Assembly (NCBI GenBank): GCA_945865905.1
Contig: CAMBFC010000002.1
Span: 28,333 to 92,332 of the forward strand
DNA length: 64,000 bases
Reading direction: 5' to 3'
DNA from: Rickettsia typhi
GTDB lineage: Bacteria; Pseudomonadota; Alphaproteobacteria; Rickettsiales; UBA1997
Made by a program: the position numbers and the translations under genes
The notes under the pieces: model-generated
What the model saw: only the letters and a program-made list of their open reading frames with translations
Database searches by the model: none
Told to the model about the DNA's origin: nothing
In this document: positions 2,230 to 11,061 of the stretch, piece after piece
Numbering within the stretch: position 1 is the stretch's first letter
How the letters are laid out: every line of letters begins with the position of its first letter

Positions 2230-3286
2230 TCGGCAATTTTAGCAATCTTCTAATTGCTAAAAAAGCAAAGGCCTCTGCCTCAATCGCATCACCATTAAAT
2301 CCCAGATCATCAATAGAAAGAACCTCAACATCTACAAGGTATTTTTTCATTTTACCCATTATTGCAACATTTTTTCTGCCGCCACCGCAAACAAAAATTG
2401 CCTTTGGTCTAAATCCAGACTGTTGTGATAAAAATTCGAGATTAATTTGAACAACTTTGGCGTGCATATAAGCAAAAGTTGCCAGAGCGTCTTCAATTTT
2501 TAAACTATTAATTGGGGCCAATAGTTCAGAAAAATCATCACGATCAAACGATTTTGGCGGCTTCTTGCTAAAAATATCATCACACAAAATACGATCAGCG
2601 AGAATCAAATCAACTTTTCCATTCTTAGATAATTCACCATCTCTATCAAAATCTAAATTGAGTTTTTTCTTGATTAAATCATCAAAGGGAGCGTTGCCAA
2701 AGCAAATATCAAAAGCCTCAACATCACTTTCTTGGTCTCCAGCAAAATAAGTTATATTGCTAATACCGCCAATATTTAAAACCATCACTGGCTTTTTTTG
2801 ATTACGCAAAAGATAGAAATGATAAATTGGCACAAGAGGCGCGCCTTGGCCACCAAAAGCAACATCACGATTACGAAAATCAGCAACAATATTAATGCCG
2901 GTTTTTGCTGCTAATAATTCTGGATTGCCAATTTGCCAAGTGCTTTGATGCTCTGGAGCATGTAGAATTGTATGTCCATGAAAAGCAATCGCATCTATTT
3001 CTTTACGATCAATTTTATTTTTTTCCAAAAAGTCATTAACTATTTTTGCATTAAGCAAGGTTAATTCATTTTCTGCAAGCTTGATTTCTTGAAGGGTTGG
3101 GGCGCCATAAATTAGGTGCTGTAGAGATTTTTTAAAAGCTGGCGTATAAGAGGTATAAGAAAAATTTTTACGCTCAATAAAATCGGCACCATCACTGCGA
3201 ATTAAAGCCAGATCAGTTCCATCCATTGATGTTCCGCTCATCAAACCGATTGTGGTATAAATTTTGCGACGCTCTTGACTAGACAT
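2126..3286 (-). CDS. anmK: anhydro-N-acetylmuramic acid kinase
   Basis: [15 protein letters not shown] near the N-terminus, [18 protein letters not shown], and a C-terminal ...TTG...GGVFYPA. I place the start at MSSQERRK (ATG = rc of 3284-3286) rather than at the track's upstream Met at 3346. Confidence 0.85.
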
Positions 3287-4070
3287 TGGCAATTTTTTGA
3301 ATTTTATCAATGAGATTAACAAAAGTATCAGTGGCATAATTATCATGCTGACCTTGTATCAAAGAAGTAACTCGCTCTAAGCCCATCCCCGTATCAATGC
3401 AAGGCTTCGGCAATGGTATCATTTTGCCAGTAGCTGTTTTTTCGAATTGCATAAAAACCAAATTCCATATTTCAATAAAACGATCGCCATCCTGATCTTT
3501 GCTTCCTGGGGGGCCACCAAATATTTTATCTCCATGATCATAGAAAATTTCAGAACAAGGTCCACAAGGACCTGTATCACCCATTGACCAAAAATTATCA
3601 TCGGTAGAAATGCGAATTATTTTTTTATCTGCGAGACCAGCGATTTTTTTCCACAAATTAGCCGCCTCATCATCGTTATGATAGACCGTTACAAGCAGTT
3701 TATCTCTACTGATTTCAAGCTCTTTAGTTAGAAATTCCCATGCAAAAAAAATTGCCTCTTCTTTAAAGTAATCACCAAAAGAAAAATTTCCCAACATTTC
3801 AAAAAATGTATGGTGACGCGCCGTGAAGCCAACATTGTCAAGATCGTTATGCTTGCCACCAGCTCGCACACATTTTTGCGCAGTGACTGCGCGTTTAAAT
3901 TTAGGAACCTCAACGCCGGTGAAATAATTTTTAAATTGATTCATCCCCGCATTGGTGAACATTAGCGTGGGATCGTTGTAGGGAATTAGAGAGCTAGAAG
4001 TGACTATTTCATGACCATTATGGGCGAAATAGTCAAGAAATTTTGCACGAATTTGATTTGTTGTAAGCAC
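3279..4070 (-). CDS. alaS: alanyl-tRNA synthetase, catalytic (aminoacylation) domain only; ORF ends at residue 263
   Basis: GTG start. [23 protein letters not shown]..., [72 protein letters not shown] and DTGMGLERV are all canonical AlaRS N-terminal motifs. The stop (TAG) lies inside ATGTCTAG, which is shared with the anmK start. Confidence 0.85.
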
Positions 4071-4194
4071 AAAGAATACATTAAATGGATACCGATGGCA
4101 AAGTCAACTAAAGGATTACAGTGCGCGAGCAGCGTTGCATAAGTAAAGAAAAAGCAAATTCAGCCGCGTCAGAAGTATATAGTTAATAAAAAAA

Positions 4195-4271
4195 TGGTGG
4201 GTCTGGGAGGACTTGAACCTCCGACCTCGCACTTATCAGGCGCGCACTCTAACCAACTGAGCTACAGACCC
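4195..4271 (-). tRNA. tRNA-Ile (anticodon GAU), CCA encoded
   Basis: rc = GGGTCTGTAGCTCAGTTGGTTAGAGTGCGCGCCTGATAAGTGCGAGGTCGGAGGTTCAAGTCCTCCCAGACCCACCA. Hand-folded cloverleaf: acceptor stem GGGTCTG/CAGACCC, T arm GGAGG-TTCAAGT-CCTCC, anticodon stem CGCGC/GTGCG, anticodon loop CTGATAA. Confidence 0.9.
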
Positions 4272-7067: not shown

Positions 7068-7637
7068 ATGAAATTAATCTCTAAAATATTAATAACCACG
7101 ATAACTCTGGCCAACCTTACATCTTGCCAGCTTTTGCAGAATATCGGTTCATCTAAAAATAAAACACTTACTCCCGTTGATTATCTTGAAAAAGCACCAA
7201 AACTTGATGTTAAAAGTTTTTTTACTGGAGATTTAGAGGGTTTTGCTATTTTGCTAAATTCACAAGAAAAAATTGATACTAGTTTCACTGCAAAAATTAA
7301 CGGAAAGTGGGAGGAAAGCCGCGGCACCGTACAATATAATTATTTATATAATGGTGGCAAAAAAGATAGTCGTACTTGGCTTATAACAATCGATGATTCA
7401 TCTTCTTATAGCGCTATTGGTCATGATTTTATTGAAACGGCACAAGGTCGCAACCATGGAAATGCATCAATTGTTAATTATGGCCTAAACACAGTTTTTA
7501 AAGAACAAAAACAACGCCTTGATTTTGAGGATCAGTTTTATTTGGTTGATGAAAAATCTGCGATAGTTATTTCTACAATGAGAATTGCCGGAAACATAGT
7601 TGCCAAGGCAATTATTTCTTTGAAAAAAATCAACTAA
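7068..7637 (+). CDS. DUF3833-like lipoprotein
   Basis: Start moved to the ATG at 7068. Lipobox LTSC in MKLISKILITTITLANLTSCQ. The FFTGDLEGFA...W...R.W architecture resembles DUF3833. Confidence 0.6.
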   Translation: MKLISKILITTITLANLTSCQLLQNIGSSKNKTLTPVDYLEKAPKLDVKSFFTGDLEGFAILLNSQEKIDTSFTAKINGKWEESRGTVQYNYLYNGGKKDSRTWLITIDDSSSYSAIGHDFIETAQGRNHGNASIVNYGLNTVFKEQKQRLDFEDQFYLVDEKSAIVISTMRIAGNIVAKAIISLKKIN

Positions 7638-7640
7638 ATC

Positions 7641-8621
7641 ATGCATAAACATATTTTTTTCTCTTACGCTTTTGATAATGAGAGCAACGCACACAAGCTT
7701 CACAATGCAGAAGTGGCACAAGAGTTAAAAAATGATGGCTTAGCATGGATTCATCTTGATGGCAATAGTGCTCTATCTAAAAAATGGCTAGAGCGCGAGG
7801 TTTCTTATCTTGATCACCTTATTATTGATGCGCTTTTTGCTGAAGAGGCTCGCCCAAGAATCATTGAATTTGAAAATGGCCTATTGATAATTTTGCGCGG
7901 GATCAACCTTGATGCAACGCCTGAAGAGTTAGAAGACATGGCATCCATTCGTTTGTGGGTTGATAATTCGCGGATTATTTCTATTCAAAAACGCAATTTT
8001 AGCGCTATTTTTAATGTTGCCAAAAAAATTGATGCTGGCAAAAAAATTAAAACCTCTCCAGAATTTTTGTATAATTTAATTTATGAAAATTTATTACTAA
8101 TTTCACCAGAAATCAACAAACTCAATGATGAAATGGATGTTGTTGAGTCTACAATGCCTCAAAATGACTACGATAACAGATCTTTGCGTGAGTTGGTAAC
8201 TTCTATTAGAAGAAAGGTTGCAATTTTTAAACGCTATATTCTTCCGCAAAAAGATGTTTTATCTCATCTAAAATCGCATGATAGCGATTGGATTAACGAT
8301 TGGGCAAGAAGACATTTTCAAGAAAATCACGATCACATTACTCACATAATAGAAGAGTTAGATGAGGCGCGTGACCGCTCGCAAATTGTGCACGAAGAAA
8401 TTTCTAATGCTATAGCCGACAGACTAAATCGCAGTATGTTTAAAATTTCTTTGATTGCTTCAATCTTTATGCCACTTGGATTTATTGCTGGATTATTTGG
8501 GATGAATGTAGGTGGAGTTCCTGGTGGCGACAATCCTGATGGATTTTATATTACTCTATTTTTTATGATTGTCTCGCTTGGAATAATTTTTCTGATATTT
8601 AAAAGAAAAAAGTGGTTTTAG
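7641..8621 (+). CDS. zntB: CorA-superfamily divalent cation transporter, ZntB-like
   Basis: Two C-terminal TM helices flank GMNVGGVPG (GMN-type signature). Soluble N-terminal domain of about 250 aa. Confidence 0.8.
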   Translation: MHKHIFFSYAFDNESNAHKLHNAEVAQELKNDGLAWIHLDGNSALSKKWLEREVSYLDHLIIDALFAEEARPRIIEFENGLLIILRGINLDATPEELEDMASIRLWVDNSRIISIQKRNFSAIFNVAKKIDAGKKIKTSPEFLYNLIYENLLLISPEINKLNDEMDVVESTMPQNDYDNRSLRELVTSIRRKVAIFKRYILPQKDVLSHLKSHDSDWINDWARRHFQENHDHITHIIEELDEARDRSQIVHEEISNAIADRLNRSMFKISLIASIFMPLGFIAGLFGMNVGGVPGGDNPDGFYITLFFMIVSLGIIFLIFKRKKWF

Positions 8622-10378: not shown

Positions 10379-11061
10379 AACAATCCCTCTTGCTTAAAAC
10401 TAAAAATACCATTTTTTCCAACAATCAAATGATCGAGAATTGTAATATTTAGCGGCTTTAATGCCGCATTAATTTCGTTGGTTGTTTTTATATCTGAGGC
10501 AGATGCGCGTAAGTCTGAAGTTGGATGATTATGCAATAAAATAATCGAAGAAGAGTGCAGCAATAAAGATTTTTTTACAATTGATTTTACGCTAATTTGC
10601 ACATGATCATTTTCACCGATTCCCAATAGCTCATCTTCAATTAGTTGAAAATTTTTATTTAAAAATAACACACGAAAAACTTCATGATTTAAATTTGTCA
10701 GAGCAGCTGTGGCATGATCTACAACCGCTTGCCAATTATCTAAAACGGGCTTTATTTTAGCGCGACTTTTTAAAACTCGATTAATAATTTCAGCAATAAT
10801 TTTTAGATTTACAATCGCAGAATCGCCCACTCCATCAACAGTTTTTAACATTTCAATATCAGCGTTAATAATTGCCGAAAGATTGCCGAATTTTGCCAAA
10901 AGTTTTTTAGCAATTGGTTTAGCATCTTGCCTTGGGAAGGCAGCAAATAAAAGGATTTCAAGCAATTCATATTCGTGCAATTCTTTACCTAGTGATGCAA
11001 GAAATTTTGCTCGCACTCTTTTGCGATGACCTAAATAATCAATTTTTTCTTCTGATTTCAT
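10375..11061 (-). CDS. radC: RadC-family JAB/MPN domain protein
   Basis: LGHRKRVRAKF N-terminus, HhH region, and the C-terminal JAMM motif LLHNHPTSDLRASASDI. Confidence 0.85.
   Translation of the reverse strand: MKSEEKIDYLGHRKRVRAKFLASLGKELHEYELLEILLFAAFPRQDAKPIAKKLLAKFGNLSAIINADIEMLKTVDGVGDSAIVNLKIIAEIINRVLKSRAKIKPVLDNWQAVVDHATAALTNLNHEVFRVLFLNKNFQLIEDELLGIGENDHVQISVKSIVKKSLLLHSSSIILLHNHPTSDLRASASDIKTTNEINAALKPLNITILDHLIVGKNGIFSFKQEGLL

Follow-up and report, generated by a model that had tools for sequence, protein, structure and literature searches.

A free-standing, conserved catalytic core of alanyl-tRNA synthetase in uncultured aquatic alphaproteobacteria, a candidate subunit of a split enzyme

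In a group of uncultured aquatic alphaproteobacteria, the catalytic core of alanyl-tRNA synthetase (AlaRS) is encoded on its own by a strongly conserved gene, here called alaS-N. The copy described lies in a 64-kb stretch of DNA (the window, meaning the whole stretch that was analysed), and the features discussed are located in Table 1. On balance we lean towards reading alaS-N as the catalytic subunit of an AlaRS that is divided between two unlinked genes, which would most likely make it a split synthetase new for bacteria, cut at a site new for AlaRS. [quoted passage not shown] Docked non-covalently on alaS-N, the second protein would contribute the reading of G3:U70, proofreading and dimerisation, and the complex could thereby charge tRNA-Ala. 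It is the existence of the second piece and the assembly of the two that we infer.

Table 1. Location of alaS-N, its motifs and other features in the window
Feature	Position	Strand	Remarks
alaS-N, 263 aa	3279–4070	−	GTG start; class II catalytic domain of AlaRS on its own, followed by one helix
Motif 2 core RAGGKHND, residues 69–76	3843–3866	−	Equivalents of E. coli Arg69 and Lys73; read from the sequence
Motif 3 region DTGMGLER, residues 226–233	3372–3395	−	Equivalents of E. coli Asp235 and Gly237; read from the sequence
C-terminal helix, residues 247–261	3288–3332	−	AlphaFold2 model; alaS-N terminates just beyond
anmK, anhydro-N-acetylmuramic acid kinase, 386 aa	2126–3286	−	PF03702, E = 2e-87; downstream neighbour
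ATGTCTAG, alaS-N stop and anmK start, 8-nt overlap	3279–3286	−	TAG stop of alaS-N at 3279–3281, ATG of anmK at 3284–3286; sequence and gene calls
tRNA-Ile(GAU)	4195–4271	−	ARAGORN; Rfam RF00005; 125 nt upstream of alaS-N
Sigma-70-like match TTGCCA-17-TATTCT	4073–4101	−	Weak; just upstream of the GTG start
Subtilase (Peptidase_S8), 827 aa	35794–38277	−	Tandem paralogue of the next
Subtilase (Peptidase_S8), 834 aa	38382–40886	−	Tandem paralogue of the previous
FixP/CcoP-like cbb3 oxidase subunit III	42674–43540	+	Between a glycosyltransferase gene and holB
carB-N, 550 aa	44514–46166	−	68% identical to E. coli CarB 1–548

The extent of alaS-N corresponds to approximately residues 1–273 of E. coli AlaRS, and BLASTP against E. 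coli K-12 aligned it with residues 4–270 of that enzyme at 61% identity. The Pfam profile PF01411 (tRNA-synt_2c) matched over positions 1–259 of 552 (E = 8e-122, 408 bits). TIGR00344 matched over positions 1–250 of 847 with 392.5 bits, short of the cutoff of 457 set for the whole protein, and this solely because the remainder is missing. The best solved-structure match was the E. coli catalytic fragment 3HXU (residues 3–270). An AlphaFold2 model of the protein (pLDDT 79), which has a helix at its end, matched AlaRS catalytic fragments with a TM score of 0.85 in Foldseek, and structures of GlyQ (GlyRS alpha) were the next-best fold matches after AlaRS.

All four signatures on which the sequence-only reading had based its assignment were found in the translation of this ORF. 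The motif 2 core is invariant both among 59 aligned members of the alaS-N family and in full-length AlaRS, and the motif 3 region is invariant across the family as well. The E. coli residues Arg69, Lys73, Trp170, Asn212, Val214, Asp235 and Gly237 all have equivalents in alaS-N when it is aligned pairwise with E. coli AlaRS, and these equivalents are invariant in the family. Judged from its sequence, alaS-N is intact for adenylate chemistry.

A single helix follows motif 3 before the protein terminates, in the loop leading to SHRVIADHLR and 5–10 residues short of SHRVIADH when compared with full-length relatives. The canonical AlaRS tRNA-recognition domain, with the equivalents of Asn303 and Asp400, is absent; the end at around residue 273 precedes both residues, which bears out the earlier view that the fragment lacks the tRNA-recognition part. 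Neither PF07973 nor PF02272 was matched, and no editing domain (HxxxH/CxxxH) or C-Ala was seen in the window or in 45 related loci. In E. coli AlaRS, Asn303 and Asp400 read G3:U70, fragments of fewer than 442 residues cannot charge tRNA, and the 368N fragment makes the adenylate with no charging of tRNA (PMC11392972). Given the absence of Asn303 and Asp400 and the minimum of 442 residues, the 263-aa core is not expected to charge tRNA-Ala alone. Every cell, a free-living bacterium included, nevertheless requires Ala-tRNA, which favours the two-gene reading.

No AlaRS-like sequence follows alaS-N in any frame, as had been read from the letters alone, and two kinds of search agree on this. A tblastn search with E. 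coli AlaRS (E ≤ 10) returned nothing else significant in the 64-kb window, and a C-terminal HMM, built from 92 AlaRS C-terminal parts, had no match at E ≤ 10 in six frames of the window and 45 related loci (517 kb), from which it follows that a partner is never adjacent to alaS-N. A second AlaRS piece was likewise absent within 10 kb of alaS-N in the 45 related loci, and no AlaRS was found one step past each end of the window. An apparent tblastn extension beyond the alaS-N stop in locus L007 was spurious. Readthrough or recoding at the stop codon was rejected because the downstream frame is anmK and holds no AlaRS, and a split intein was rejected because the 8–12 or so residues after the last conserved helix positions are variable and contain no conserved block initiated by Cys or Ser. 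ARAGORN found no tRNA-Ala gene in the window or the related loci.

Alternatively, the core might itself charge tRNA-Ala as a minimal AlaRS, either assisted by a tRNA-binding protein of unrelated origin or alone at low specificity, with editing performed in trans by an AlaX-type protein. We regard this as improbable. N. equitans AlaRS-alpha alone does charge weakly and independently of G3:U70 (PMC11392972), and the absence of a C-terminal homologue from 517 kb of related DNA is consistent with a core acting on its own; however, the charging-deficient E. coli fragment 368N is longer than alaS-N (PMC11392972), and no candidate helper is conserved beside alaS-N across three contexts.

The search for an unlinked partner was made by homology, starting from the nearest full-length lineages. 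These are locus L113 and a loose set of low-GC enzymes assigned to 'Rickettsiales bacterium', whose N-terminal parts are 70–75% identical to the short forms. The queries were the C-terminal part of L113 and a 10-sequence profile (A2) of the C-terminal parts of these lineages. There was no separate C-terminal piece among the best 120 matches of each query, all of which were full-length or were partial at contig ends. Two candidates were rejected: the 611-aa protein P0500, whose gene is cut by the end of its contig, and P0414, which is also a partial. In a calibration, one of 93 full-length alphaproteobacterial AlaRS reached the score of the 120th match to these queries, so an ordinary C-terminal piece would not have been among the matches listed and their blank result is uninformative.

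Other routes to a partner were also followed. A scan of viral contigs returned only full-length AlaRS, contig-end fragments and the mini-AlaRS of giant viruses. A synteny route through recA offered no usable anchor, in that the gene upstream of alaS in L113, which we take from its sequence to be a histidinol-phosphate aminotransferase, was unmatched in the other loci. Two breaks in alaS elsewhere were rejected as splits. In L048, a GTDB representative genome whose contig name suggests a long-read assembly, an apparent split near the alaS-N site (10800–10830) is a one-base homopolymer deletion, ccacggg for ccaccggg. In L076, the complete genome of Jiella pelagia HL-NP1 and also a GTDB representative, an apparent break at around residue 345 (10990–11060) is a single-base frameshift. 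Sequencing error or recent pseudogene formation would seem to account for both.

Free-standing catalytic cores of aminoacyl-tRNA synthetases with other roles, such as EpmA, AsnA, HisZ and the SerRS-like amino acid:carrier-protein ligases, are well established. By analogy, alaS-N could be a stand-alone paralogue in a genome that also has a full-length alaS, using alanyl-adenylate outside tRNA-Ala charging; it may transfer alanine to a carrier protein, a lipid or a small molecule, or have a regulatory role. This is in our view rather unlikely. It is in keeping with the failure to find a second piece, and with a gene that carries a start and a stop of its own and relocates independently from one neighbourhood to another. 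HisZ, EpmA/PoxA, AsnA and the SerRS-like ligases, which like alaS-N are free class II cores without tRNA-binding domains, occur alongside their parent synthetase, from which they have diverged strongly; the divergence of alaS-N, in contrast, is within the normal levels of orthologues, at 61% identity to the E. coli enzyme with no near-universal residue lost. A redundant, nearly unchanged copy would also be unexpected if these low-GC genomes are compact, as an 884-kb contig may hint. Furthermore, the nearest full-length lineages are rare, with about 8–11 clusters among the matches listed vs. more than 120 short-form clusters, and therefore cannot partner the short form in the same genomes.

The comparison of alignment columns between the short forms and 122 full-length AlaRS gave a similar picture. 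Each of the 88 columns conserved to at least 97% among the full-length enzymes is retained in the short forms, as are 135 of the 149 columns conserved at 80% or more, with three switched and 11 mildly relaxed; one group-specific fixed change was seen among the highly conserved columns. No acceleration of the paralogue type and no change of active-site or tRNA-end residues was detected in the short forms by this comparison. Identity of the short forms to E. coli AlaRS is 63% (59–66), compared with 61.5% for the full-length relatives of low GC and 68% for the enzymes of ordinary alphaproteobacteria, and is thus within the range of full-length alphaproteobacterial enzymes. These values show that alaS-N is under the same constraint as the N-terminal part of full-length AlaRS.

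If alaS-N had no homologous partner at all, it would be either the entire alanine-activating part of a radically reduced AlaRS system, in which an unrelated factor reads tRNA-Ala, or a stand-alone enzyme derived from AlaRS with a role outside translation, the first of its kind. We hold this broader outcome to be doubtful, though worth keeping in mind. The two-gene AlaRS proposed above and the free-standing paralogue had both been put forward by the sequence-only reading, and these are the two of its readings that are still live. Its third suggestion, a very recent rearrangement, is refuted by a truncation that is common to more than 120 clusters, about 40 loci and at least three gene contexts.

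The short form is widespread. In a search of 5.8 billion proteins, the best 120 matches of alaS-N were all 253–307 aa long with 75–89% identity, and the form comprises more than 120 protein clusters, several with 60–90 member sequences. A metagenome scan keyed on the group-specific motif QFKNYFTG, which occurs in 74–83% of short forms vs. approximately 0–1% of full-length AlaRS, added some 40 further short loci with 72–89% identity to the window, in which the alaS ORFs stop at 261–266 aa. The GC content of the related loci is 28–40%. Where a source database names the relatives, they are called 'alanyl-tRNA synthetase' (JGI) or 'hypothetical protein' of a Rickettsiales or Proteobacteria bacterium (MAGs at NCBI). 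A scan of GTDB gave, among the matches listed, only ordinary full-length alphaproteobacterial alaS with no more than 74% identity.

Of 119 family members, 101 terminate 28–30 residues beyond motif 3, the last residues being variable, and synonymous sites are saturated among the relatives. The short forms cluster together in neighbour-joining trees with a bootstrap of only 37/100, and their combination of signature motifs occurs in none of the full-length proteins compared.

The gene had been described as unlike a decaying pseudogene, and the rates of substitution agree. Across 128 pairs with dS between 0.05 and 1.5, the median dN/dS (Nei-Gojobori) was 0.11, indicating strong purifying selection, and every near-universal residue is retained. 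In four of the five closest pairs the ratio was 0.04–0.06; the closest pair of all, L102/L109 (dS 0.10), gave 0.41, the maximum of the series. Between the window and locus L092, alaS-N shares 80% amino acid identity, which is above most of its neighbours (58–84%). The hallmarks of a pseudogene were not seen in alaS-N: selection is not relaxed, the end point is fixed and there is no downstream remnant.

An error of assembly or sequencing, such as a frameshift or a chimera, or a non-functional remnant would leave a similarly short ORF, and the broken alaS genes of L048 and L076 illustrate that errors of this type do occur in the data. For alaS-N such an origin is nonetheless hardly credible. The exact protein with the same neighbours was recovered in contigs of five samples made with different assemblers, and the alaS/anmK junction, where a misassembly had been a concern, is identical in these five independent assemblies. 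The conservation of the truncation in more than 120 clusters, the dN/dS of 0.11 and the lack of AlaRS remnants downstream in any frame all argue against it further.

Both the sequence and the gene calls place the alaS-N stop inside ATGTCTAG and give the 8-nt overlap with anmK that had been reported. The coupling to anmK which had been drawn from this overlap holds for this species and its closest relatives but not elsewhere, where there is a gap or no anmK adjoins the gene. In relatives sharing the gene order of the window the gap between alaS-N and anmK is 5 to approximately 210 nt, and in other lineages anmK does not adjoin alaS-N. The overlap is therefore a local feature and no conserved coupling, and a functional link between alaS-N and anmK was rejected because the overlap is unconserved and the neighbours differ in other lineages.

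At least three different gene neighbourhoods were found for alaS-N. In the first, observed in the window and six relatives (one of which, L106, is too short to show anmK), the order is an OmpH-like gene, tRNA-Ile, alaS-N, anmK, a hydrolase gene and pgk. In the second, on an 884-kb contig, alaS-N adjoins trpS and nadA, and in the third it adjoins a gene for class I lysyl-tRNA synthetase. The trpS and nadA genes are adjacent in L208 (2845–4922) and in L006 (3463–5393); the pair lies next to alaS-N in L006 and about 70 kb away in the genome of the window, so either alaS-N or its surroundings have been rearranged between lineages. Downstream of alaS-N, L006 encodes a protein of at least 548 aa that runs off the contig end (6789–8432, minus strand) and L007 a highly acidic repeat protein of 392 aa (7303–8481, minus strand), neither of which has a Pfam match.

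The tRNA-Ile(GAU) gene by alaS-N stands alone, outside any rRNA operon or 16S-23S spacer, and is found upstream of alaS-N in seven related loci (among them L091, L092, L104, L106, L118 and L123). This suggests that the rRNA genes of the lineage are unlinked or that a spacer tRNA has been relocated. The sigma-70-like match upstream of alaS-N is non-significant, with eight such sites seen vs. 9.9 expected by chance.

Among known systems, the split AlaRS of the Nanoarchaeota is similar in that a catalytic N-terminal piece is encoded as its own gene. In N. equitans the two genes lie half a chromosome apart and both products are needed for G3:U70-specific charging, and the split, near the position of E. 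coli residue 368, lies within the tRNA-recognition domain, such that the alpha piece keeps the Asn that reads U70 (PMC11392972). That system is archaeal, whereas the present cut is in a bacterium and at about residue 273 rather than 368; compared with the nanoarchaeal alpha piece, alaS-N is missing the whole recognition domain except for one helix. The nanoarchaeal AlaRS-beta is known, whereas a counterpart of alaS-N was not found in 517 kb.

The bacterial GlyRS (alpha2beta2, GlyQ/GlyS) offers a second precedent for a divided enzyme, having a free class II catalytic subunit of approximately 280–300 aa and a separate large subunit for tRNA recognition. The catalytic domain of GlyQ is the closest relative of that of AlaRS, and the ATL domain is common to both enzymes (bioRxiv 10.1101/2023.05.29.542759). 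Unlike GlyQ, alaS-N is an AlaRS by sequence, with 61% identity to E. coli AlaRS vs. about 12% to GlyQ. Additionally, glyQ and glyS as a rule lie side by side or overlap, whereas alaS-N has no partner within 10 kb.

The mini-AlaRS of Tupanvirus is naturally shortened and departs from the four-domain prototype (PMC10036535). In contrast to alaS-N, which stops about 170–180 residues earlier, it has a complete aminoacylation domain and is active alone. Four contigs from IMG/VR (L202–L205, 90–411 kb) encode AlaRS of approximately 430–445 aa that end after the tRNA-recognition domain and have no editing domain or C-Ala; these proteins, on giant-virus contigs, resemble the published Tupanvirus enzyme.

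Free-standing AlaX editing domains demonstrate that modules of AlaRS can work in trans as separate polypeptides. AlaX corresponds to the editing module, whereas alaS-N is the catalytic one.

A second essential gene of the window is likewise interrupted between domains, and its other half is unlinked. CarB is an internally duplicated protein, and the product of carB-N terminates precisely at the CarB mid-point. The members of the carB-N cluster are all 550 aa long, and neither the second half of carB nor carA is present in the 64-kb window; the neighbours of carB-N are holB and nusB. This indicates that the lineage tolerates fission of the kind proposed for alaS. Elsewhere in the window are a tandem pair of large subtilase paralogues and a FixP/CcoP-like gene that has no ccoN or ccoO nearby (Table 1).

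It has been said that AlaRS retains one prototype domain structure throughout biology (PMC10036535; PMC10485164), and that it is the only synthetase to do so, the exceptions named being the split enzyme of the Nanoarchaeota and the Tupanvirus mini-enzyme (PMC10036535). In a full-text literature search, no account of a bacterial AlaRS that is split or truncated was found. The present data add a group of aquatic bacteria in which the catalytic core is held apart from the parts that read tRNA-Ala and proofread, at a site unlike that of the archaeal split. One practical consequence is that marker-gene sets which rely on TIGR00344 may under-call alaS in these genomes, since alaS-N scores below its cutoff. 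If the partner exists, the two genes would be the natural counterpart, for AlaRS, of the alpha/beta design of bacterial GlyRS, would allow direct tests of how a catalytic module and an acceptor-stem-recognition module work together in trans, and would bear on the common origin that has been proposed for AlaRS and GlyRS.
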